A stretch of 32,000 nt of DNA from Candidatus Harpocratesius repetitus. Its GTDB lineage: Archaea > Asgardarchaeota > Lokiarchaeia > Sigyniarchaeales > Promethearchaeaceae. How positions within the stretch are numbered: position 1 is the first letter of the stretch; every line of letters begins with the position of its first letter. The notes beneath the pieces were generated by a model. That model was given only the letters and a program-made list of their open reading frames with translations. It was not told the origin of the DNA and did not search any database. The position numbers were made by a program, and so were the translations under genes. The stretch covers positions 2,640,001-2,672,000 of the forward strand of contig JAIZWK010000001.1 in NCBI GenBank assembly GCA_021498095.1, written 5' to 3'. This document shows positions 8,315-21,022 of this stretch, piece after piece.

Positions 8315-8941
8315 ATGGAAAATTTACCCACACTTCGAACTTATTATTGTTTAATTGTTGAACAGTATTTGAAAGAAAAATTTCCAGGTAAAGCACAAGT
8401 TTATAGTGACAAATTCAAGAAAATTTTTGAAGAATTAATTGATTCTCCTAAAAATAGTCAATTTTTTGGGAATAAAACTGCAAATTTACATGCAATCAAC
8501 CCAATTTTTGTGATTGCGTTTTCTAAAGCAATAGAAGCAGAAAACTATCAAAAGAATCAAATTCAATCCATGATCATGGAGATTTATAAAATAATGGTTA
8601 AACCATTATTGGATAAACAGTTGCAATCTATGAAAAATGCAAAGATTCCATGGAAACATTTTATCGAAATTACAAAAAACGGAAATCACAAATTATATGA
8701 AAATGAATACTTTCAAGTTGAATATGTTGTAGAAGACAGATTACGGTTTGGATTTAATATTAACAGATGCTACTATTTTGATATTTTTAAAGCAAATAAT
8801 CAAGAAAGACTTGCATCAATACTTTGTCAATATGATAACCTTTTAGCTGAAAACCTGAATAAATGGGTTCGATTTCAGCGTAATTCTACGATTGCTGAAG
8901 GAAATTCCAAATGTGAATTTCGATATTTTCGGAATATTTGA
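8315..8941 (+). CDS. L-2-amino-thiazoline-4-carboxylic acid hydrolase (ATC_hydrolase)-like protein
   Basis: FNINRCYYFDIF...LCQYD...RFQRNSTIAEGNSKCEFRY matches the C...C..D...R..Tia.G...CdF pattern of this family. Confidence 0.8.
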   Translation: MENLPTLRTYYCLIVEQYLKEKFPGKAQVYSDKFKKIFEELIDSPKNSQFFGNKTANLHAINPIFVIAFSKAIEAENYQKNQIQSMIMEIYKIMVKPLLDKQLQSMKNAKIPWKHFIEITKNGNHKLYENEYFQVEYVVEDRLRFGFNINRCYYFDIFKANNQERLASILCQYDNLLAENLNKWVRFQRNSTIAEGNSKCEFRYFRNI

Positions 8942-8970
8942 AAAAATCGAGATTTTAAAAATATTGGCTG

Positions 8971-8992
8971 ACTTCTCACACTTCTCACACTT
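8971..8992. repeat. 9-bp tandem duplication (acttctcac x2.4)
   Basis: Read directly from the sequence. Confidence 0.7.
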
Positions 8993-9525
8993 GATAAATT
9001 TTTTTACTAATTGTTCAGTATGGCTTAATAAGAAAGAAAAATTTAATTTTTAATTTAAAGAGGATCTAACAATTTTTATTATTGTAAAGATTTTTAATTT
9101 TACGGCTCAATATTGCTCTGATTTTATATTTTTATCCTGTTTTTATTTAGTCGGTTTTTTTGGAATAATATTTAGTGAAATACTAAACATCATAAAGGAT
9201 AGCAAGGATTTTATCTGTATTCTAATTATTAGTGACAAATTGATAAAAACCAGACTTTGGTGAAATGGGCAAATATTTATTGTTTAATTACTAGCAGATT
9301 GAAAAAGACCAAATTTAACCTAATCACCAAATGATATTGCAAGAATATCGAGATTGGCTTGTGGATCTATTTTTTCAAACTTTTGATTTATAACGAAATT
9401 AACATTTACCAGAACCAGATGGTGGATGAGAATAATGTAATAAAATTTATTTCAATGGGGACCTTAAAAAAAGATTTTTTGTGAATTCCGGAAGGCTTAT
9501 AACAAGAAAATCAAAAGCTGTAATA

Positions 9526-10854
9526 ATGAAAATAGTTTTTGTAATCACTTCCCGGGGAACTGTTGCTATTACAGTTAATTCAGGTGATTCGGTTAATGAT
9601 TTAATTAAACGAGTGAGGGAAGCTTCTGGAGTGAATTATCAATCTTTTGATCTTTATACCCCACTTGGTATAATTAGTAATGATAATTCAGATATTTATA
9701 ATTTGATTAATGATCAATCAAAAGTAAAATTTTTTGAGAAGGATTTTATTATAAATTTAGAAATTGATAAAAGAATTAAAGGGTCTAATTATGGAATTTT
9801 GTATCTCGATAATATAAAATTAACAAAAGTACCAATGGACAAAATCCAAATTCTAAATAATAAAGAAAATATACGTGTACTCAATTTATCTTATAATCGA
9901 CTTGGAATTTTACCAGAGAGCATAGGTAATCTTAAGTACCTTCAACAACTGAGAATAAACGATAATGAATTAAGTTCTCTCCCTGAGAGTATAGCTAAGC
10001 TCACCAACCTACAGATATTAGGAATTAATTATAATCTATTGTCTTTTCTCCCAGGAAGTATAGGAAATCTAGTTAACCTTACATACCTTAGTCTAGAAGG
10101 TAATTTATTAACTACTCTTCCAGAGAGTATAGGTAAGCTTGTCAACCTTAAAGAATTGAATTTAGAAGGTAATAAAATAACTACTCTCCCAGAGAGTATT
10201 GGTGACTTAACTAACCTCCAAAAATTGTATATTAATAGAAATCAATTAAATTCTATACCTGAGAGTATAAGTAAGCTTGTCAATCTTAAAGAATTGTATT
10301 TAGAATATAATGAATTAACTACTCTCCCAGAGAGTATAGGTAAGCTTGTCAACCTTAAAGAATTGTATTTAGAATATAATGAATTAACTACTCTCCCAGA
10401 GAGTATAGGTGACTTAACTAACCTCCAAAAATTGTATATTCATAGTAATCAATTAAATTCTATACCTGAAAATATCGGAGATTTAACTAACCTTCAAGAA
10501 TTTCAAATTAATAATAATCAGCTAAAGTCTCTTCCCGAAAGTATAGGAAAGTTAACTAATCTCCAAAAATTGTATATTCATGGTAATCAATTAAATTCTA
10601 TACCAGAGAATATAGATAATCTGAGGTCCCTCAAAAGTTTATATATTACGAATAACAAATTAACATCTCTTCCAGAGACCCTGGGTAATTTGGCTAAGTT
10701 GACTTATCTTGATATTGAGGATAATAAAATAGTTAAATTGCCGGATAGTATAACTAAATTGAAGCTAAAAACCTTAAATATACAAAGAAATCCACTTAAA
10801 TTATCAAGAAAGATCAAAAAATGGATTAAATCAATAGATAATGTGCATCGATAA
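9526..10854 (+). CDS. Leucine-rich-repeat protein with an N-terminal ubiquitin-like domain
   Basis: About 14 LRRs of 23 aa (LxxLPESIGxLxNLxxLxLxxN). The N-terminus from ATG 9526 aligns without gaps to ubiquitin residues 1-36. The ATG start is preferred over the track's GTG at 9481. LRR certain; UBL probable. Confidence 0.85.
   Translation: MKIVFVITSRGTVAITVNSGDSVNDLIKRVREASGVNYQSFDLYTPLGIISNDNSDIYNLINDQSKVKFFEKDFIINLEIDKRIKGSNYGILYLDNIKLTKVPMDKIQILNNKENIRVLNLSYNRLGILPESIGNLKYLQQLRINDNELSSLPESIAKLTNLQILGINYNLLSFLPGSIGNLVNLTYLSLEGNLLTTLPESIGKLVNLKELNLEGNKITTLPESIGDLTNLQKLYINRNQLNSIPESISKLVNLKELYLEYNELTTLPESIGKLVNLKELYLEYNELTTLPESIGDLTNLQKLYIHSNQLNSIPENIGDLTNLQEFQINNNQLKSLPESIGKLTNLQKLYIHGNQLNSIPENIDNLRSLKSLYITNNKLTSLPETLGNLAKLTYLDIEDNKIVKLPDSITKLKLKTLNIQRNPLKLSRKIKKWIKSIDNVHR
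10123..10467 (+). repeat. Near-identical 69-bp LRR-encoding units
   Basis: 10261-10329 vs 10330-10398 are 67/69 identical; 10192-10260 vs 10399-10467 are 66/69 identical. Confidence 0.9.
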
Positions 10855-10906
10855 AAATACCTCTGCTTCCATGTTCAACAACTGAAATAAAAAGGAAAAA
10901 GGTTAT

Positions 10907-12652
10907 ATGAAGATAAAAAAAGCGACCATTGTCAAAAATGCAATAATATATACTCTTGATCAGAGCAACTCAATTTTTGAATCAATGCTGATTATCGATG
11001 GATTTATAGAAAAATTAGGAACAATAGAAGAAATTGATGAATTTTGGAGAGATTATTATAAGAAAAATAATTCTTTAAAATTCAATGTTGAACTAAATGA
11101 AATTGATTTACAAAAGAAATTCGTCTATCCAGGCTTTATTGATGCGCATCTTCATCCTATTACTTGTATTGTAAATAATACATGCTTTAATTGTGAAAAT
11201 CTCCGTTCATTTGAAGAATTTGCACAAGGATTAAAGAATTTTGCTAGAAAACTTTTCACAATAAATACACCTGTATCATCAGGTGAAAATCAAAAATATT
11301 CTTCAGATCAGTGGATAGTCGCGATTAAGTTCAATGAACAAAATTTCACCGATCCTAATCAACGAATTCTACCAAATCGCTGGAATTTAGATGATGTTAT
11401 TTCTTCACATCCTATAGTGGTTTATCGCTACGATTTACATATTGTTTGTTTGAACTCAAGAGCTTTAGAAATTCTTGGAATAGATAATTCACCTTATTCT
11501 TTAGATTCAAGACATAAAATTCAATATGGAGAAATTAGAGTGGATAAAAATGGCATTCCAAATGGGCTCTTAACCGAAGATGCGATGAAACTACTCGATC
11601 CTATGATTCCCATACCAACTAAATCTGAATTAATAGATGCGATGAATAGATTTTCTTTTGAATTAGGATCTCATGGGATAACTGCTATAGGTGCAGTAGT
11701 TTCAGAGCAATATCTCCCAATATTAGAAAAGTTGGATTTTTTTAAATCTTTTCCCCAAGATGTCGCTTTTTATTTCAATGTTAAAGAAATCTCTAATGTA
11801 ATTTCGTTACGAAAGAAAATCCAAGTAATTTCATCAAAAAAAGATCACATTTCTGTAAATGGATTAAAAAGATTTATGGATGGCTCGTTTGGAGCAAAAA
11901 CCGCTTGGTTATATCAACCTTACAATAATTTAGGAGAAACGGATACAAAAACAAACGATACTTTTTTATCGGGAATGTGTGCTACAAATTTGGAACAATT
12001 AGCAAGGGATCTTAAAGAAGCTTCTAAACAAGAATTAGATGTAATGGTGCATGCGATAGGAGATCGCGCTAATAAAGAACTTGTTGCATTGATTTCTAAT
12101 CATTGGAAAAAATTTAATCTAAAATCTAATAAACATAATTTTCCTCGTATTAGAATTGAACATGCATCAATGTTGTCAATCGAAGTTATTAGAGAAATGG
12201 CCAAGTTAAATATAATTCCTGTATCGCAACCGGAATTTATCCGAAGTGAATCTTCTTGGTTGATTGATTATATTGGAGACGAGAGAATAAAGATAACATA
12301 TCCTTTTCGAGATTTAATTAAACATGGATTACCTTTAGCAGGAGCATCAGATGCGCCAGTTGAATCTTTAAGTGTTTTGCGTGCTTTACAAGATTGCATT
12401 TTACGTTTTGGATTAAATCCCAGTCAATCAATTTCTATACAAGATGCACTTAAATTATATACTCAAAATGCAGCTTATGCAATTCATCAAGAACATATAA
12501 GAGGAACGTTAGAAAAGGGAAAAATCGCAGATTTTATTGTTTTCAAAGATGATCTTTTAAAAATAAACCCAAAAGAAATAGATAAAATAAAAATTTATCA
12601 AACATACCATAGAGGTATTTGTATTTTTGATAATAATATAAAAAGAGCTTAG
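10907..12652 (+). CDS. Amidohydrolase family 3 (YtcJ-like) metal-dependent hydrolase
   Basis: PGFIDAHLH, KRFMDGSFGAKTA, VHAIGDRA, RIEHAS, ASDAP and GTLEKGKIADF. Confidence 0.92.
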   Translation: MKIKKATIVKNAIIYTLDQSNSIFESMLIIDGFIEKLGTIEEIDEFWRDYYKKNNSLKFNVELNEIDLQKKFVYPGFIDAHLHPITCIVNNTCFNCENLRSFEEFAQGLKNFARKLFTINTPVSSGENQKYSSDQWIVAIKFNEQNFTDPNQRILPNRWNLDDVISSHPIVVYRYDLHIVCLNSRALEILGIDNSPYSLDSRHKIQYGEIRVDKNGIPNGLLTEDAMKLLDPMIPIPTKSELIDAMNRFSFELGSHGITAIGAVVSEQYLPILEKLDFFKSFPQDVAFYFNVKEISNVISLRKKIQVISSKKDHISVNGLKRFMDGSFGAKTAWLYQPYNNLGETDTKTNDTFLSGMCATNLEQLARDLKEASKQELDVMVHAIGDRANKELVALISNHWKKFNLKSNKHNFPRIRIEHASMLSIEVIREMAKLNIIPVSQPEFIRSESSWLIDYIGDERIKITYPFRDLIKHGLPLAGASDAPVESLSVLRALQDCILRFGLNPSQSISIQDALKLYTQNAAYAIHQEHIRGTLEKGKIADFIVFKDDLLKINPKEIDKIKIYQTYHRGICIFDNNIKRA

Positions 12653-12661
12653 AGATCCTTA

Positions 12662-12853
12662 TTATTTTTGAGATTGTTCATGACACCATTGCTCTTTGCA
12701 TTGGCGGGAGCAAAATTTGTGCTCAGGTGGATCTTGGCTGATATTTTTATGTACAACATGTCGTTTTGGAAGAGGTTTTCCGCAATAATTGCATTTTTCG
12801 GGCTGTTTAATTGATTTTGGTAATATGATATCAGAAAAATTTGATACTCCCAT
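12662..12853 (-). CDS. Small TRASH/MYM(FCS)-type zinc-finger protein
   Basis: CNYCGK...HKFCSRQCK (CxxC...FCSxxC). Confidence 0.75.
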   Translation of the reverse strand: MGVSNFSDIILPKSIKQPEKCNYCGKPLPKRHVVHKNISQDPPEHKFCSRQCKEQWCHEQSQK

Positions 12854-12985
12854 AAAAAATTTAATATGAAATTATTCTTTAAATTATCGAAAAAACTTCA
12901 AGTGTGCTTCAACAGCAAAAAAATTTTTGATCAAACTTAATCATTGATCGCTTAATTTATATAGATCTTTCCTAAATTTAATTCT

Positions 12986-13711
12986 ATGGTGACCATCTCC
13001 GAAATATCACGCCTTCTTGGAGTTACTCCCGCAACTCTGCGCAGATGGGATAGAAACGGATACCTCGTTCCAAAAAGAACTTTTGGAAATCACCGCCGAT
13101 ACTCATGGGAACAGTTGGCGGATTTTCTGCTCGAATCGGTTAATCTACCCTGCTAACAAGCGGAGGAAACTGTAAAATCGACCTATATCTATGCAAGAGT
13201 TTCATCGTTCAAGCAGAAAAAGGATGGAAATCTTGACAGACAGGTCGAACGATTGAAAAAATATCACAAAGAGCATTTTACTGATGAATCACCTGCCAAA
13301 GTAATTAAAGAATACGGCTCTGGACTGAATCCGATGCGTCGAGGGTTGTGGCGGCTGCTGAAGCAAAATGAGCAGAGGAAGATGGCACGGGTGCTGATTG
13401 CTTATAAAGATCAGCTCACAAGATTCGGATTTCCGTTTTTAGAATATGTTTGCAGAATTTACGATGTGCCGATAATCGAGGTGGAGCGTGGATTGAATAC
13501 TTCTTTAGAGGAACAGCTGGTGACGGATTTGATGGCGCTGATTGCGTCGTTTTCGGGCAAATTGTATCAGTTGCGGGCGCTTCAGGCAAAAGGCTACGAT
13601 AGAGAGGAGAAAGAGCGGGAAAGAATTGATGCCATTATCGAGAGGTATGTTAGGAGGGATTCGGAAAGAAAACTGAGCAAGTTGACAAGTTATGGAGTCT
13701 ACGAGAAGTAA
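12986..13711 (+). pseudogene. tnpA: IS607-family serine recombinase TnpA with an in-frame TAA at 13154-13156
   Basis: ATG 12986 begins a MerR-like HTH (ISEISRLLGVTPATLRRWDRNG...GNHRRY), then TAA, then in the same frame YARVSS, LDRQVERL, GSGLN, YKDQLTRFGF and LVTDLMALIASFSGKLY. The catalytic YARVS segment has no start codon of its own. Confidence 0.9.
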
Positions 13712-13845
13712 AAGAGATTCCGATTGAATTTACCCATAACCCAAGGCTGTGGATTAACATTTCAAATCTTCCTCACATCCCTCATATTTCCTTTCTACCG
13801 ATTGAGCTTTGGGACTGCACCCAGTTTGAAAACAGCGAATCATTC

Positions 13846-14100
13846 ATGTATGATTTTGATTCTTTCATCCATCCCCGAAAGCAAGAGAATATCGAGCGTT
13901 ATAAGGAGTGGGAGAAGCTATTTTTTGAAGAATACGGGTTTGAAACAGTTTGGACCGCTGAGCGGATTAAATTTATGGATTATGCGTTAATTGCTGCGGA
14001 GCAAATTCCAGAAAAAGAACTGCGTGAAGAATTTATAAGGTGGGCAAAAAAGTTCAGACCCAGATTTAAATTGAAAAGCGGTTATGAATTGATAATGTAA
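13846..14100 (+). CDS. Hypothetical protein; frame is open from 13654
   Basis: 84-aa ORF with the same GC-rich composition as tnpA and 64 more sense codons upstream without an ATG. Confidence 0.55.
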   Translation: MYDFDSFIHPRKQENIERYKEWEKLFFEEYGFETVWTAERIKFMDYALIAAEQIPEKELREEFIRWAKKFRPRFKLKSGYELIM

Positions 14101-14112
14101 ATCTTCTGATAA

Positions 14113-15679
14113 ATGAGAACAACACATTTAGAAAAGTCAACAAGTAAAATTAAAATAAAAACCTCGGATACTAATCAAATATCTTTATCAGAATATACAG
14201 CCAGAAAGAATTTTGAGCAGAGAAAATTGATAAAACATTCAAACAGTACTGTAAAAGCGGTTGCTCTACTTCAGCAGAAAAAAAACCAGATAGAAAATTA
14301 ATTTAAAATTGAGGGTATTTTAAATTTCAAAGATTCGAATTTTTTCATTTCATCATCTTAATTCTTCCGACTCAAATCTAAAATATCCTTCCTTATTTTT
14401 TGTCGATTTTACCAAGGTGCTAAATTTAAGATATGTAATTCAAAAATTATAATAAAATAGACATTAGATTGAAGAATTTATAAACAGGATGGTAAATTTT
14501 TAATAAATTTTTTGAAAAAATCGAGTTCGACAAAAAAAGAATTGCGATATTTCAGATATAAGTCGGATATATATGAATGATATTCAAAAAAGCGTTTAAA
14601 TTAAAAAAGATAAAATATCCTCAATTAAAAATATTAAAGAATGTACTCGAGCTTCCTAATACTTACTCAAAAAATCATATATGAAGCGCGTCATCAATAA
14701 TAAATCAACCAGATTAAACCGAAACATTGCCCATAATTTATTCCGTGCTGTTTTCCGTTCATCTGAAGCGTCAATTAATCACTGTCTGCAAAATGAAGAT
14801 CTAAAGCAATCGGTAATATCGTATATACAGAATCTTTGGCCTTCTGTTGGATCTCAATTTTTCATACACGAAAACAATCCTAATTCATCATTTATCAAAA
14901 ATATTTTCAAAATGCATTCCCGAATCAATTTTGAAAGCTTATGGAAGTATAAAGCGACCAAAGGTGAATCATTTGCTCTTGAAAAAGTCCGATGGCTTCG
15001 CGGCTTACTACCTGATTACACCCAAGAAATGGGAAGCATGAAGGGAATAAATGTGAAATATGTTCCTGCAGCCTATACTTCAAAACTGAGCATAAACGGA
15101 ACCGAAGGCAAAAAAGGATTTCTCATGGCTTTTCATAATAATAGAATATTTCCTGTAAAAGGACCGGGATATACTGTCAATTTTAATGAATTTGCTGCTT
15201 TTATTTTGAAAAATCCTGATAAATACGAGTATAATTTTACGGCTCCTACAAAAATAATTGAATCATGTAAAAATTACTTCAATTCTAAAAAAAATAAAAC
15301 TAATATCGTCTTTGTTTCAGCTTCTCAAGGAAATACGTTTTTTTATGAAAATACAGTTAAATCTGAAAATGATGAAAAACCAAAAGCAGAAAAATTTATC
15401 GTCGATCGAGATGTTAACGGCGCTTAAAACATTGCCAGATATAATAAATTGAAATATTTTGAAGAAACGGTAAATTTGCAGATTGATCGATACAAAAATA
15501 CAGGAAAAAGAAATTCAAAATCCATGAAAAGTGGACAAATAAACTTTTCAGCGGTTTGCTTAAGGTTTTGGATACATCCTTCGGCAGTTATCATCCATAC
15601 GGTTCGTTATAATGGTTCGATTGGCGTGAATTATCAAATCAAATCAAACCTAAAATTTTATCAACTTAGAAACGAATAA
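14113..15679 (+). pseudogene. tnpB: Decayed TnpB/Cas12-like RuvC nuclease
   Basis: GINVKYVPAAYTSK (15044-15085) and DRDVNGA*NIAR (15404 onward), with the frame continuing past TAA 15425-15427 to 15679. Further in-frame stops and probable frameshifts lie upstream of 14681. The 5' limit is uncertain. Confidence 0.72.
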
Positions 15680-15699
15680 TTTTACTACTTGGTGAAATT

Positions 15700-16347
15700 A
15701 TGAATTTAAAAAAATTTATTCGGTTTCTTTTAAAATCTAGCATCAAAATTATTTCTTTATCTATAACACTTACGTTATTAATTGGAAGTATTTCAATTTT
15801 TACAGTTCTCTCTGATCCTGCGAACATCACGGCAGATTGGGAGAATATGGATATAAATATTGGTCCTACTGGAAATCGATTTGCTTTAAACATGACCTTC
15901 GAAAATTCAGGTTATTTTGATTTCGATAATTTCACAATATTTGTACAATTCACTCTTGAGAATAAAACATCTCATGAAAATTTCACAATTTTAAACGAAA
16001 TATTATTCCAAGACACACTAACATCCAAAAATCAACATGTTCTTCATCTTCTTGCTTTAGAAAGTGATTTCCAAACATTGCATTTGTTAAGTGATAATGG
16101 AAATTCTTGGAATGATCCAGACGTTCAAGTTTATATAGATAATGGAACAATATCTGAAGAAAATGCGTCAATTTTTGTTTACCCATATCTTCTTTGGCAT
16201 TATGATATTCACTTTTCACTAGGTATTCAATCTACGTATTTCTTAAACCTAATTACAATTGGTTTGCAAATTCAGTATCTTTATACCTATGATGATGCAG
16301 GTTTTACTTCAGATTATCCTACTTACAAAGATTCATTATTACCCTAA
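15700..16347 (+). CDS. Membrane-anchored exported protein (possibly LEA_2/Ig-like beta fold)
   Basis: N-terminal TM helix followed by a beta-rich region (ALNMTFENSGYFDFDNFTIFVQF). The fold is a guess. Confidence 0.7.
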   Translation: MNLKKFIRFLLKSSIKIISLSITLTLLIGSISIFTVLSDPANITADWENMDINIGPTGNRFALNMTFENSGYFDFDNFTIFVQFTLENKTSHENFTILNEILFQDTLTSKNQHVLHLLALESDFQTLHLLSDNGNSWNDPDVQVYIDNGTISEENASIFVYPYLLWHYDIHFSLGIQSTYFLNLITIGLQIQYLYTYDDAGFTSDYPTYKDSLLP

Positions 16348-16457
16348 AAAAAAGCAGAGTGTAATTAAAAAAACTAAGAATTATAAATAAAATTTAACAA
16401 CAAATCAAAAGGGATATAATTATCGGATACAGAAAGGAAAAGGATGAGAGCTAAAAT

Positions 16458-17102
16458 ATGAATAAGGTTGTAGGAAATATTATCAAGGGATTTTTTGCAG
16501 CAGTAATGAATTGGTTCGTAAAAGTTACTATTCCAATTGCTATTTTTACCTACCTCTCGGGATACGACGTTTTAGGAATTGAAATTTTTTCTGAAGAAAA
16601 GGTAGCAATAATCACTTATTGGATCTGGGGTGTTGGAATTATAACTACTGCGATTCGATTTTGGGTTGCCAGTAGTCCGAAGTATTCAGTTAGAAAAGCT
16701 ATTGCAGAGATTTTTCTCTTAGCTGCAAATCTCTTTTATATGTATGTGTACCGTTTTTCGGGGATAATGGAATTTGAGAATATATCAATTTCACTTACTG
16801 AAAAACTTAGTACTTCCATATCTTTGAATTTAAACAATTTAATTTATGCATCTATGGGACTTATGGGTTTAAATATCATTATCTATTTGTATGATTTAAT
16901 TTTGGCGATTTTTAGCCCAATTGAACCAAATTCTAATAAAAATGAGAAAGAAATCAAGAAATCACAAAAAAAATCTAAAAAAAGAAATACAAATAGAAAC
17001 GTGTCCAAGAGTAAAAAGAAAAATACTATGAATTACGAACATGAATCTAAAAGTCATAAAAAATTAGAATATAAATCAGTATTTGGTGATGATATAAAAT
17101 GA
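16458..17102 (+). CDS. Hypothetical membrane protein (about 4 TM) with a Lys-rich tail
   Basis: Hydrophobic segments and a KKSQKKSKKR tail. Confidence 0.75.
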   Translation: MNKVVGNIIKGFFAAVMNWFVKVTIPIAIFTYLSGYDVLGIEIFSEEKVAIITYWIWGVGIITTAIRFWVASSPKYSVRKAIAEIFLLAANLFYMYVYRFSGIMEFENISISLTEKLSTSISLNLNNLIYASMGLMGLNIIIYLYDLILAIFSPIEPNSNKNEKEIKKSQKKSKKRNTNRNVSKSKKKNTMNYEHESKSHKKLEYKSVFGDDIK

Positions 17103-17431
17103 GATTATTAAAAATATTAAAAATGATATGGTTTCTTCAAGTTCCAGACTTTACTGAAATATTAGAGAAGATTTATACTGCTATTGAAATAATTTTACCG
17201 TATTTAGTTCCATTTATGAATTTTGTACAACCTTTGGTCTCTAGTTTTGGAAATTTCTTACGGAATTTAATTGCACCGTTTTATAGTAGCTTAAATTTAC
17301 CTGCAGATTATTATATTACAAGGAATTTTATTCCATATTACATAATTGGTGGAGTTATTTTGTTATTTGCAATATTTGCTGCAATTAAATGGCCAAAACA
17401 AATGAATATAAAGAAAAAAGATGAAAGTTAG
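17099..17431 (+). CDS. Small hypothetical membrane protein
   Basis: 4-nt overlap with the upstream gene; C-terminal TM helix. Confidence 0.65.
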   Translation: MRLLKILKMIWFLQVPDFTEILEKIYTAIEIILPYLVPFMNFVQPLVSSFGNFLRNLIAPFYSSLNLPADYYITRNFIPYYIIGGVILLFAIFAAIKWPKQMNIKKKDES

Positions 17432-17472
17432 AAAGAAAAATTCTTTTTTGGTGTGAACTTAAATAATTTATA

Positions 17473-17967
17473 ATGCGTGTAATTGTAAAATTTCGTTCGA
17501 TGTTTAATCTTGTATGGGGTTCTAACGTTTCTGGTTATAAAGCCTTTGCTTTTGTGAAAGGTTTTCCTGCGACTTTTTTTTTAACAGAACGTCGAGCGAT
17601 AATTGTTGGTAATTTTATGGAAAAAATGGGATGGTTTCATAAAAAGAAAGTTCATAGAGTTATTTTTGAAGCCAGTTTGCAATATTTAAAAGAATTTAAA
17701 ATGAAAATTGATCCTCCAAGACGAATTTTTACTGCATTTTTATCTTTTCATGCTCATGGGCAATTACAAGAAGATAGTGTTATTCAATTTATGAAAATAA
17801 AACCTGAAATTGGTAAGATAATCGAAGAATATGTGAAGGATCTTAAGATTAAAAATCCTATAGAAGACTCAGGTATTATTTTAGTTGATGAGAATGCACC
17901 TCCAATTCAACAATGGTTGAATAAAAGATTTGGAAGTAAAAAAGGAACACCAAATTTGACTTTTTAA
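17473..17967 (+). CDS. Hypothetical protein, possibly PH-like fold
   Basis: 164 aa; FFLTERRAIIV resembles the L.LT..Rli motif of PH-like (GRAM/GLUE/bacterial PH) domains. Confidence 0.7.
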   Translation: MRVIVKFRSMFNLVWGSNVSGYKAFAFVKGFPATFFLTERRAIIVGNFMEKMGWFHKKKVHRVIFEASLQYLKEFKMKIDPPRRIFTAFLSFHAHGQLQEDSVIQFMKIKPEIGKIIEEYVKDLKIKNPIEDSGIILVDENAPPIQQWLNKRFGSKKGTPNLTF

Positions 17968-18031
17968 TCAATATTTTTGCCTTTTTTATTTAGATGAGAT
18001 TATTCCTTTTTTATTTTAAAAAATTTTTTTC

Positions 18032-21022
18032 TTAATTATTCACAAGTACTTCATCATTTTCTAATGGCAATTTACATACAACCAGAATTGTTTTGATTTG
18101 CATTGGTTTAAGTTGAAAATGCAGTTTTTGCCCTACTATTCTAATTTCGCCGGGTTGAATATTTTGGTTAACAATTTTTTCAATAGGATCAATTTCAGTT
18201 ACTTCTTTTATCACTATATTCTTATGAAGTATTATTTTTGCTTTAGTTATAGGTTTAGATTTATCTAAGTTAACACAGCGAATGATGAAAGGTAGTTCAC
18301 TCATGGAAGGACGGTAAAACCATTCAGGTGCTTCACGCATGTAAGGTTCCATTTCCTTTACACTCATAATTTCAACGGTTTTCGGAAAAACATCAATTAA
18401 TGAAAATGAAGGATGAACTGCATTTGTTGGAACAGCAATTAGTGGTGTATTATACTCTTGATATTGATGATATATTTCTAAATCATTAACTTTTTCAGTA
18501 ACAGGTTCTAAAGCCCATAATATGCGGTGAAAACCCATTTCTTGAACATGAATTTGTTGAGAGTAATCAGAATCTAATGAAATTGGGTTTGTTTTTGGTA
18601 TGATTGTTGCTTTAGAACCAATAAGCTTGATGATAGTTTTACTTGAATTAACATGAATATAATGCTTATTCTGGGCAAAAAAAGCAATTCCCTCACCAGA
18701 AGATAAATTAGATTGCTTATTTTTAGTTCGTCTGATAATAAAATCTTGACTTTTAAGATCGATCATTAATTCTCTATTATATTCATTTCTTTTTCTATCT
18801 TTTCCAATATTATCCAGTGGTAATTCCGAAATATTTGAAATCTCAAATGATTCTAATCCAATAATAGATTTTGTAGTTATTTTTGGAGTCGTTTTTGATG
18901 TTTCAAAATTAAAAAGTAATTCAGAATGAGGTTCCTGCCAATTGATTAAAATTTCAACTTCAATTCGGCTAGATTTATGGTAAAAATAATAATTAACATG
19001 AAGTTCTGTTCCTGTGTGTAGCTTTTGATAGTGACATCTAAGTGAATAGCGAATTGGTCCTTTTTCTTCAAATTGGATTGATTTAATCTTAAATTCTTTT
19101 AGATTTTGATAGATTTTTTTAATAGGTTGCATAATTGAAGATTTAGAATTTAAAATATGTGAAGAAGATTGAATATTGAAATAATATCCATCTGGTTTTA
19201 AAAGATTTAATTCAGAATTTGTAGATGTTTTTTCGCTTAACCATTTAATATAACCTGTATCTTTAGCAATTTTTACCTTGATAAACGCATTTTCAAAAAT
19301 AAAATCATTTCCATATTCTACTAATAATTTTTTTCGATTTTGTATTTCTATCGATGATTTAATTCCATAAATATTACTTATTCCAAAAGGATCAATTTCT
19401 GCATGTGGAGGGAGATAAATCAATAAATTTTCCTTTTCTGCTCTTTCGAAGGTATAAAGTTTATCCCTGGCTGTTTTTCTATCGAAATCTTCATCATTAT
19501 AATCAATTTGTACATTCAGATCTTGGAGTTCACAAATATCTTCTAATTCTTGTTCAATGTTTTTTAGATAGTTTATTCCCTCCACAAATGTTAATCCCAA
19601 TTGAATTTCACGGTTAAAAGTAAAGGGTGAATATGCAATATTTTGAGTTATTAATGGTTGATTATTGGCATCTAAGACATGAGCAAAGGAGCGTGCAGGA
19701 AGTATTAAATATCCCGACCTTTTCCAAGAAAGAGAATTAAATACACTGTAAACATCGTGATTTAAAGTCGATTTCATAGAATGTGCAATATGCATCATAG
19801 AATTTTCTTGAGTACTAAATAAGGCTGAGAAAATCGAATTAAATTCTTTTGCACTATCTCGAAGAACCTCTGTAATGACCTTTCCTGAAATAAGACTTTG
19901 ATTATGTTGTTTTAAAAAAAGTTCCCATAGATTCGTCAATTCATCTTGAAAATGCGGCCCACCAAAAATACCAGAAAAAAGGGAAAGAAATTCGGTTTGA
20001 AAAAACAACTGCTCACAAGATTTAATATGAGAATTTATAAATGAAATTTGATGCTGAGCGGGGAAATTTTCTGAATACTTAATATTCGTGGATAAAACAG
20101 GTAAATCATCTCTATTTTGATCAACAAAAGACCAATAATTTTGAAGTGAGACTATTTTTCCTAATTTCATTGATTCTAATGCTTGTGCAGTTATTATTTT
20201 TCTTAATGGAAGCATTCTTGTTAGGCGATTTGGAAATGAATTATAGAGAATGAGAGGAAAACTTATATTAGCATTATTTTTTATCCATTTTTTCTGAAAT
20301 TTAATAGTTTTATTAATACTTGATAAAATAGATGTGAAAGTCGTAGTTAACTCATAAATATCTTCATCGGTTTGTTGAACATCATTTACATTGACTTGGT
20401 TTTTGTTCTGCCAAATAAAATTTAAAGGAAAATTCAAATAATTTGGCTTTTTTTGAGTTGAAACTATAAGAAGTTGTGAAATTCCCATTTGTGAAAGAAT
20501 TGGTATTATTTGAGAATCTAAATGTTTAGGATTTGTCAAGACTAAAGTAGAACAATCTGTATGAAACCATTTCAAGAGAAAACGTTGACCCATTAGTAAA
20601 TTTCGAATAATAAGTTCTCCAGATAACATTTCAGGTAAAAAATCAACCCATCCTGCATTCACTATTTCCCATTTTTTTGTTTGAATCATATTTTGAATGT
20701 CCCGGAAATTTTCATTATAGTTTTTCCGAGTCCACTCAAGAAAAATAAGGGGACTTATACTCATTGATAAATCTATAAAAGGATCCTTTTCTCGAATAAT
20801 AAGATAATCTTGAAAAAATTGGCTTATTTTATTATCAATCATATCGGAAAGACGGTTTTGTTTTGTAAAAGGCCAAATTTTCATCAAATTAAAGAAAAAA
20901 TAATTTCTTTTTTCCTCATTTAAGTCGTTTGATTTTCTTTTGATTGATTTTTGAATTAAATCATAATATTTTATACGATAGATCCATCTTTTCCCTTTAA
21001 ATAACAGATCTGCGAATATCAT
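18032..21022 (-). CDS. GH38 alpha-mannosidase-like protein with degenerate catalytic motifs
   Basis: WEIVNAGWVDFLPEMLSGELIIRNLLMGQRF, QHNQSLISG (QfHD.l.G region) and VFNSLSWKRS follow the GH38 layout. The W.pD.FG nucleophile position reads VLTNPKH. The start codon is uncertain. Confidence 0.8.
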   Translation of the reverse strand: MIFADLLFKGKRWIYRIKYYDLIQKSIKRKSNDLNEEKRNYFFFNLMKIWPFTKQNRLSDMIDNKISQFFQDYLIIREKDPFIDLSMSISPLIFLEWTRKNYNENFRDIQNMIQTKKWEIVNAGWVDFLPEMLSGELIIRNLLMGQRFLLKWFHTDCSTLVLTNPKHLDSQIIPILSQMGISQLLIVSTQKKPNYLNFPLNFIWQNKNQVNVNDVQQTDEDIYELTTTFTSILSSINKTIKFQKKWIKNNANISFPLILYNSFPNRLTRMLPLRKIITAQALESMKLGKIVSLQNYWSFVDQNRDDLPVLSTNIKYSENFPAQHQISFINSHIKSCEQLFFQTEFLSLFSGIFGGPHFQDELTNLWELFLKQHNQSLISGKVITEVLRDSAKEFNSIFSALFSTQENSMMHIAHSMKSTLNHDVYSVFNSLSWKRSGYLILPARSFAHVLDANNQPLITQNIAYSPFTFNREIQLGLTFVEGINYLKNIEQELEDICELQDLNVQIDYNDEDFDRKTARDKLYTFERAEKENLLIYLPPHAEIDPFGISNIYGIKSSIEIQNRKKLLVEYGNDFIFENAFIKVKIAKDTGYIKWLSEKTSTNSELNLLKPDGYYFNIQSSSHILNSKSSIMQPIKKIYQNLKEFKIKSIQFEEKGPIRYSLRCHYQKLHTGTELHVNYYFYHKSSRIEVEILINWQEPHSELLFNFETSKTTPKITTKSIIGLESFEISNISELPLDNIGKDRKRNEYNRELMIDLKSQDFIIRRTKNKQSNLSSGEGIAFFAQNKHYIHVNSSKTIIKLIGSKATIIPKTNPISLDSDYSQQIHVQEMGFHRILWALEPVTEKVNDLEIYHQYQEYNTPLIAVPTNAVHPSFSLIDVFPKTVEIMSVKEMEPYMREAPEWFYRPSMSELPFIIRCVNLDKSKPITKAKIILHKNIVIKEVTEIDPIEKIVNQNIQPGEIRIVGQKLHFQLKPMQIKTILVVCKLPLENDEVLVNN

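Follow-up and report, generated by a model that had tools for sequence, protein, structure and literature searches.

A leucine-rich repeat protein with an orphan, possibly ubiquitin-like N-terminal module at a rearranged locus of one Asgard archaeal genome

Eukaryotic adaptor proteins characteristically carry integral ubiquitin-like domains (UBLs). In tubulin cofactor E (TBCE) and its E-like relative (TBCEL), the UBL lies C-terminal to the leucine-rich repeats (LRRs), and TBCE additionally bears a CAP-Gly domain, in the order (CAP-Gly)-LRR-UBL. UBX domains, for their part, present an FPR loop between strands S3 and S4. That TBCE and TBCEL possess both LRRs and an integral UBL that is not conjugated is documented, as domain content only (PMC3789837), and in fungal Cyr1 and animal PHLPP an RA domain of the beta-grasp type stands N-terminal to the LRRs, that of Cyr1 binding RAS (PMC12002173). 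LRR proteins are abundant in the genomes of Asgard archaea, where their functions are unknown (bioRxiv 10.64898/2026.10.28.762692). Here, we describe one such gene from a stretch of 32,000 nucleotides (hereafter the window) of Candidatus Harpocratesius repetitus (contig JAIZWK010000001.1, forward-strand positions 2,640,001 to 2,672,000). The host genome is closed (4.36 Mb, 31% G+C), and its relatives, like the matches of the protein, belong to the Promethearchaeota/Lokiarchaeia of the Asgard archaea. The gene occupies window positions 9526-10854 of the plus strand (translated part 9526-10851), and its 442-residue product comprises a 15-strand LRR solenoid preceded by a 72-residue module, termed the head. 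What is new is an LRR protein variant with an orphan, possibly ubiquitin-like head; its type of solenoid is already known.

The closest described systems each resemble this protein in part. Asgard LRR proteins of the SHOC2/Ras group share its 23-residue LPxxIGxLxxLxxLxLxxNxL repeat, and thousands of proteins, many from Asgard archaea, are homologous to the LRR part, at 40-53% identity over the solenoid. However, the listed homologues carry other partners (TIR, Roc-COR, GNAT, HEAT, RING, NEL) or none, and a ubiquitin-type Pfam domain in no case. TBCE and TBCEL, which the original prediction cited as eukaryotic UBL+LRR architectures, are built differently: their UBL is C-terminal, whereas the head is N-terminal here and the chain ends in a 17-residue basic tail, with no sequence relation detected. 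Cyr1 and PHLPP match the layout, with a beta-grasp-type domain (only a candidate in our protein) ahead of the LRRs. They differ in that PP2C and additional output domains follow the LRRs and in that their RA domain was gained in opisthokonts; the window protein has no Pfam match to PP2C or RA and no output domain. The UBX-like p97/Cdc48-binding domains (the NPL4 N-terminal UBD and the OTU1 UBXL) supply the best-scoring Pfam families on the head, in register, yet their scores of 14-18 bits fall short of the cut-offs (21.9 and 22.7), and predicted strands 3 and 4 of the head are joined by a loop, Y-T-P-L-G, that is not of the FPR type. Finally, the integral UBLs of other Asgard genomes are likewise non-conjugatable and fused to further modules, a solenoid (HEAT-UBL) included; unlike the head, they pass the PF00240 cut-off (26-39 bits), and 0 of the 8 looked at are joined to LRRs.

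The gene is real, because it combines an in-frame coding signature, LRR Pfam matches at 1e-52, and a solenoid modeled at a predicted local distance difference test (pLDDT) of 95-99. The head itself is truly coding and native in composition: the codon-usage log-odds reach 0.32 per codon in frame 1 versus -1.4 and -2.1 in the other frames, which places it at the 64th percentile among real in-frame windows and at a level attained by 0 of 3000 out-of-frame windows. The corresponding value of the LRR part, 0.19 in frame, is ordinary for genes of this genome. No sequencing runs, RNA runs included, were listed as containing the DNA of the gene.

The C-terminal part is, as read from its sequence and its predicted structure, with certainty an LRR solenoid of the SHOC2/Ras-group type. 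From about residue 90 on, a Pfam scan of the protein returned LRR families alone, led by LRR_14 (5.8e-52, 177 bits, cut-off 40), LRR_8 (3.6e-49, 165 bits, cut-off 27), and LRR_4 (145 bits, cut-off 27). Thirteen perfect 23-residue units of the LPESIGxLxNL type, spaced by a 69-nucleotide (nt) DNA period, fill residues 116-414 (nt 9871-10767), with one longer unit before them and one partial unit after. AlphaFold, supplied with a 47-row LRR alignment, folded the region into 15 strand-helix turns of a curved solenoid at the pLDDT given above, with a predicted template modeling score of 0.81. The protein, which ends 17 residues past the solenoid, has no cysteine, no C-terminal anchor, and no PP2C or other output domain. 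Two adjacent units, residues 254-276 and 277-299 (nt 10285-10422), encode nearly the same protein and contain identical 40-nt stretches (10298-10337 and 10367-10406), which suggests a very recent duplication of a unit.

The head is a separate module rather than a continuation of these repeats. The DNA at 9754-9778 is 80% identical to that of the LRR unit at 10159-10183 (repeat family D4), such that residues 77-84 already represent, at the DNA level, a degenerate LRR unit, and the head therefore comprises residues 1 to about 72. A decayed LRR origin of the head was ruled out, an LRR-unit hidden Markov model scoring below 0 bits on residues 1-76. The original prediction of a ubiquitin-like domain fused to an LRR solenoid thus holds insofar as a distinct N-terminal module is fused to the LRRs. 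Its boundary lies at about residue 72 (nt 9741) and not at residue 75 (nt 9750) as first proposed, and its ubiquitin-type likeness is weak, is confined to the first 43 or so residues, and falls below every cut-off.

The similarity that drew attention to the head is a gapless alignment of its residues 1-36 with ubiquitin 1-36, which proved exact when recomputed: six of 36 positions are identical (M1, I3, T12, V17, D21, and G35), for a BLOSUM62 score of 37. This score was reached by 0 of 100,000 shuffles, and the head is alone in attaining it among 3,356 protein N-termini. Pfam scans of N-terminal fragments, from residues 1-50 up to residues 1-120, returned four weak matches over residues 1-50, all in register: UN_NPL4 (E-value 0.003-0.01, residues 3-45, 17-18.5 bits), OTU1_UBXL (0.04-0.24, residues 9-37, 12-15 bits), RBD (0.17-0.27, residues 12-45, about 12 bits, cut-off 25.7), and DUF7054 (0.12-0.2, below cut-off). 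We take the first three to be ubiquitin-fold families. A profile built from 19 collected Asgard ubiquitins scored 5.7 bits on the head; enlarged with eight integral UBLs to 27 sequences, it scored 10.2 bits on the isolated head, a value reached by three of 5000 shuffles, and aligned head residues 2-43 to model positions 4-44. In the ESM Atlas, ubiquitin or Rad60-SLD figured in five of the ten listed named cluster sets, at weak scores of 0.77-0.83; the unfiltered search gave one unnamed cluster, at 0.75.

Structure prediction points in the same direction. In the AlphaFold model of the full protein, the head consists of strands at residues 2-8 and 11-17, a helix at 23-34, strands at 43-45 and 48-50, and a helix at 54-62, in the order strand-strand-helix-strand-strand-helix and at a pLDDT of 38-68. 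These boundaries agree with those of the corresponding elements of ubiquitin, which lie at 1-7, 10-17, 23-34, 40-45, 48-49, and 56-59. A Foldseek search of the PDB with a model of residues 1-90 produced compact matches (35-38 columns, root-mean-square deviation about 2 Å), almost all of them to ubiquitin chains. When the head was modeled in complex with the best Cdc48 paralogue (its N-domain), the score was 0.00 in a run without controls, which counts neither way. Whatever its fold, the head cannot, on its sequence, be conjugated as a modifier, because residues 1-95 contain no Gly-Gly and the chain runs on into the LRRs instead of ending there; the earlier claim to this effect is borne out.

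No relative of the head was found in any search. Queried by word index with residues 1-100, a set of 5.8 billion proteins returned none, and phmmer with residues 1-85 against 1.84 billion cluster representatives returned none that is credible; its sole match, a 2306-residue tandem-repeat protein (P0002), was spurious, its score being summed over four stretches. Translated searches (tblastn) of 40 related genomes gave nothing real (best E-value 0.0096), the two best matches lying in a histidine kinase and in an unrelated 658-residue protein. Collections of genomes, metagenomes, and viral contigs contained no relative, and PADLOC and NCBIfam searches yielded nothing for the head. The proposed survey of Asgard LRR proteins for the same N-terminus likewise found it nowhere among the listed homologues or the 40 relatives; LRR-homologue alignments that appeared to enter the head were extension noise. 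Even without a head, no LRR orthologue above 51% identity occurs in those 40 relatives. Recent duplication within the genome was ruled out, the best paralogue being 47% identical.

The locus is equally singular. The gene is flanked by an ATC-hydrolase-like gene and an Amidohydro_3 gene, 1,965 bp apart here. In a genome of the same genus (G002), the same two genes are adjacent, with 258 bp and no LRR gene between them, and the Amidohydro_3 gene is 55% identical to that of the window. The extra DNA includes, in order, a dispersed repeat, the remnant of an insertion sequence (IS), and the LRR gene (Table 1); alignment of the spacer with its 258-bp counterpart was uninformative in this AT-rich DNA. 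The remnant ends about 50 nt before the ATG, and other copies extend further upstream in the alignment, a full copy (e.g., L081:2972-4291) encoding a 439-residue DDE_Tnp_1 transposase. Its end may be the source of the promoter of the LRR gene. The gene is thus an accessory, lineage-specific one at a rearranged spot, found in one genome only. With a single informative congener, gain here and loss in G002 are formally inseparable; a recent origin or capture is favored because of the IS debris and the lack of a relative anywhere.

How, then, is the head best explained? On balance, we lean slightly toward a ubiquitin-like beta-grasp that is integral and diverged, its elements running strand-strand-helix-strand-strand-short helix-strand. 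The most economical mechanism, judged by analogy from the architecture, would be a two-handed adaptor, which would hold a ligand protein on its concave LRR face and dock through its head on a machine that reads beta-grasp domains. By the weak matches, that machine would be sought first among partners of the Cdc48/p97-binding UBX-like kind (UN_NPL4, OTU1_UBXL) and second among those of the Ras-binding kind (RBD). Such a protein would have arisen as a lineage-specific novelty at a site rearranged by mobile elements, not as an inherited Asgard/eukaryote architecture. We hold the explanation as a whole, a lineage-specific LRR adaptor with a probable beta-grasp head, to be evenly poised. Its most specific form, in which the head is a true UBX/UBL-type beta-grasp of recent origin or capture and the adaptor passes LRR-bound proteins to a Cdc48-type unfoldase or a small GTPase, appears unlikely. 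Several results weigh against a beta-grasp head and its docking role. At the scale of the genome, the ubiquitin-type signal is at chance level: six of the 1,089,319 natural 36-residue windows of its open reading frames (ORFs), the head counted in, reach a score of 37, so that the match to ubiquitin 1-36 is unusual and yet has about five equally good chance matches; UN_NPL4 searched genome-wide gives the head an E-value of 0.08 and another locus a higher score; and with the 27-sequence profile the full protein comes 12th among 4,317 ORFs, its E-value being 1.4. No ubiquitin-type match reaches a curated Pfam cut-off, PF00240 gives no match to the head in Pfam scans even at E-values up to 10, and a crude global profile alignment with Asgard ubiquitin is not significant. 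In hhalign, the head obtains a P of 0.0019 but a probability of only 14%. Residues 37-72 show no likeness to ubiquitin 37-72, a string checked in the PDB (gapless p 0.22; Smith-Waterman at chance). In both AlphaFold models the pLDDT of the head stays below 70, and below 50 over residues 38-71 (42.5 for residues 1-90 modeled alone), and neither builds the fifth strand of a beta-grasp; of the AlphaFold check suggested at the outset, the order and boundaries of ubiquitin's elements were recovered and a confident fold was not. The best Foldseek E-value is 0.44, with none below 0.4. None of the ubiquitin-type signals is significant on its own, the lines of fold evidence are not independent because all draw on the same 43 or so residues, and the sequence had been picked for looking like ubiquitin. 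No proteasome or Cdc48 link, partner, or GTPase occurs among the Pfam-annotated ORFs of the neighborhood, which leaves the proposed role of substrate receptor or proteasome shuttle without a foothold there.

These same results, namely the equally good windows elsewhere, the chance-level genome-wide ranking, the dissimilar second half, the low model confidence with its missing strand, and the want of any homologue, are in keeping with a coincidental likeness. The head would then be an orphan module with a different small alpha/beta fold, or else a cap in partial disorder, having arisen or changed past recognition in this lineage, and the protein no more than an LRR binder extended by an N-terminal stretch of its own. 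We regard this as possible though doubtful, since the weak signals converge on ubiquitin types (three of the four Pfam matches, the Atlas neighbors, and the compact Foldseek matches), the match begins at M1, the module has the length of ubiquitin, and, the last strand excepted, the predicted elements follow the order of a beta-grasp. Were the beta-grasp instead of the Ras-binding RBD/RA type, the protein could be an effector or scaffold for an Asgard small GTPase, of which there are many, laid out as the RA-LRR core of Cyr1 and PHLPP, a known eukaryotic arrangement in which RA binds RAS (PMC12002173). The in-register RBD match, the naming of this LRR type after SHOC2 and the plant Ras-group LRRs by database sources, and the common Roc/COR GTPase fusions among the closest LRR homologues all speak for it; the match, however, is far under its cut-off and weaker than that of UN_NPL4, and with no GTPase annotated nearby and no PP2C or other output domain in the chain, this reading is improbable. 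The original prediction went further and saw a possible eukaryotic-signature architecture, that is, an integral UBL carrying LRR-bound substrates to the proteasome or Cdc48 as an Asgard forerunner of the eukaryotic UBL-LRR proteins. UN_NPL4 and OTU1_UBXL are families with p97/Cdc48-binding members, and the genome has three Cdc48 paralogues and one ubiquitin. Nevertheless, only one genome has the gene, the congener lacks it at the syntenic site, and the head is without relatives; the architecture is therefore not an ancestral signature, and the claim fails on distribution. In addition, the UBX profile PF00789 has no match in the genome at E-values up to 10, the YTPLG loop is not FPR, and the domain order of TBCE and TBCEL is the opposite, all of which render a forerunner decidedly improbable. 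A different kind of alternative concerns the start codon. Translation from an in-frame GTG at 9481 would place a basic extension before the hydrophobic first strand, as a signal peptide or membrane anchor of a secreted or surface LRR protein. With this start, the Kyte-Doolittle mean reaches 1.78 over 19 residues and 2.55 over 11 residues downstream of an R/K run, and, by reading of the sequence, neither start codon (ATG 9526 or GTG 9481) has a Shine-Dalgarno motif. A signal peptide is unlikely because charges interrupt the hydrophobic run, which is broken by Lys and Ser-Arg-Gly. The maximum with the ATG start is 1.09, AlphaFold makes the stretch a hairpin followed by an amphipathic helix, and the protein has a basic tail and neither cysteine nor C-terminal anchor. 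We therefore consider an exported protein the least probable of all these readings, and a location in the cytoplasm probable.

Table 1. Features of the LRR gene and its upstream DNA, in window coordinates.
Feature	Position	Strand	Basis
Whole gene (protein P0001)	9526..10854	+	ORF list and translation: 442 codons plus stop, uninterrupted
Alternative in-frame GTG start	9481..9483	+	ORF list; extends the chain by 15 basic residues if used
Orphan head module (residues 1-72), candidate beta-grasp of the integral kind	9526..9741	+	No homologue in any search; not degenerate LRR; AlphaFold secondary structure
Residues 1-43, sole stretch with ubiquitin-type similarity	9526..9654	+	Gapless ubiquitin match, Pfam, own profile, hhalign
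Predicted capping helix / decayed first LRR unit, residues 73-88	9742..9789	+	AlphaFold helix 72-86, pLDDT about 60-71; DNA repeat
LRR solenoid, residues 89-425, 15 strands	9790..10800	+	Pfam LRR families, 69-nt DNA period, repeat table, AlphaFold
Basic C-terminal tail with short helix, residues 426-442	10801..10851	+	Isoelectric point 11.2, charge +4.8; AlphaFold helix 428-435
Second dispersed repeat, ~210 bp	9039..9249	+	77-78% identity to two other loci, near G000 positions 3,490,016 and 2,233,260
IS remnant: final ~225 bp (3' end) of a DDE element, IS4/IS5-like and multi-copy	9255..9477	+	76-84% identical to at least 6 other genome loci

Beyond the LRR gene, the order of genes from 8315 to 21022 of the window is kept in the congener (L016, G002:C43), apart from two insertions here. 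One of these comprises the repeats and the LRR gene. The other, past the amidohydrolase gene, is an IS607-like element with a MerR-type helix-turn-helix protein, a resolvase, and a decayed TnpB, possibly together with a small zinc-finger gene (12662-12853, minus strand) that lies between the amidohydrolase gene and the element and encodes a 63-residue protein near the cut-offs of zf-FCS and DUF7576. The remaining Pfam-annotated neighbors include an ABC transporter, hydrolases, glycosidases, a PIN protein, and a TPR protein, and several nearby ORFs have no Pfam match; these neighbors offer no clue to what the LRR protein does.

The wider premise that Asgard archaea encode ubiquitin is sound, PF00240 exceeding its cut-off in 105 of 151 sampled genomes, and the ubiquitins collected all end in GG. 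Pfam-significant integral UBL fusions also exist in the phylum, in the form of UBL-TopoVI-A, HEAT-UBL, and UBL-LuxR. The first is a topoisomerase VI subunit A/Spo11 protein with an N-terminal ubiquitin/Rad60-SLD domain above the Pfam cut-off, seen in genomes G092 and G077 (L091:922-2310 and L092:865-2253, both minus strand). In six further fusions (L095:816-1574, plus strand; L097:1062-1715, minus strand; L093, L094, L096, and L098), the UBL follows HEAT repeats at the C-terminus, stands N-terminal to a LuxR-type helix-turn-helix, or, in four of the proteins, is C-terminal and the sole Pfam domain. In the genome of the LRR gene, the next-best matches of the Asgard UBL profile (8-9 bits) fall at the C-termini of two ORFs of 348 and 369 residues, about 3 kb apart on the minus strand near 146.1-147.2 kb and 149.4-150.5 kb; these ends may be UBL tails that have diverged, or may match by chance.

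It would be wrong to list the protein among eukaryotic signature proteins or to treat it as an Asgard-wide architecture. The present value of the finding is mostly cautionary, as it combines a weak likeness over 40 residues with a single-genome gene beside insertion-sequence debris. Should the head be a young UBX/UBL-type beta-grasp in an adaptor, an Asgard archaeon would have re-invented, independently, the eukaryotic logic of joining a docking UBL to a repeat scaffold. If the head is a working beta-grasp docking module, it would offer a small and testable example, from a close relative of eukaryotes, of such adaptors being put together out of parts.

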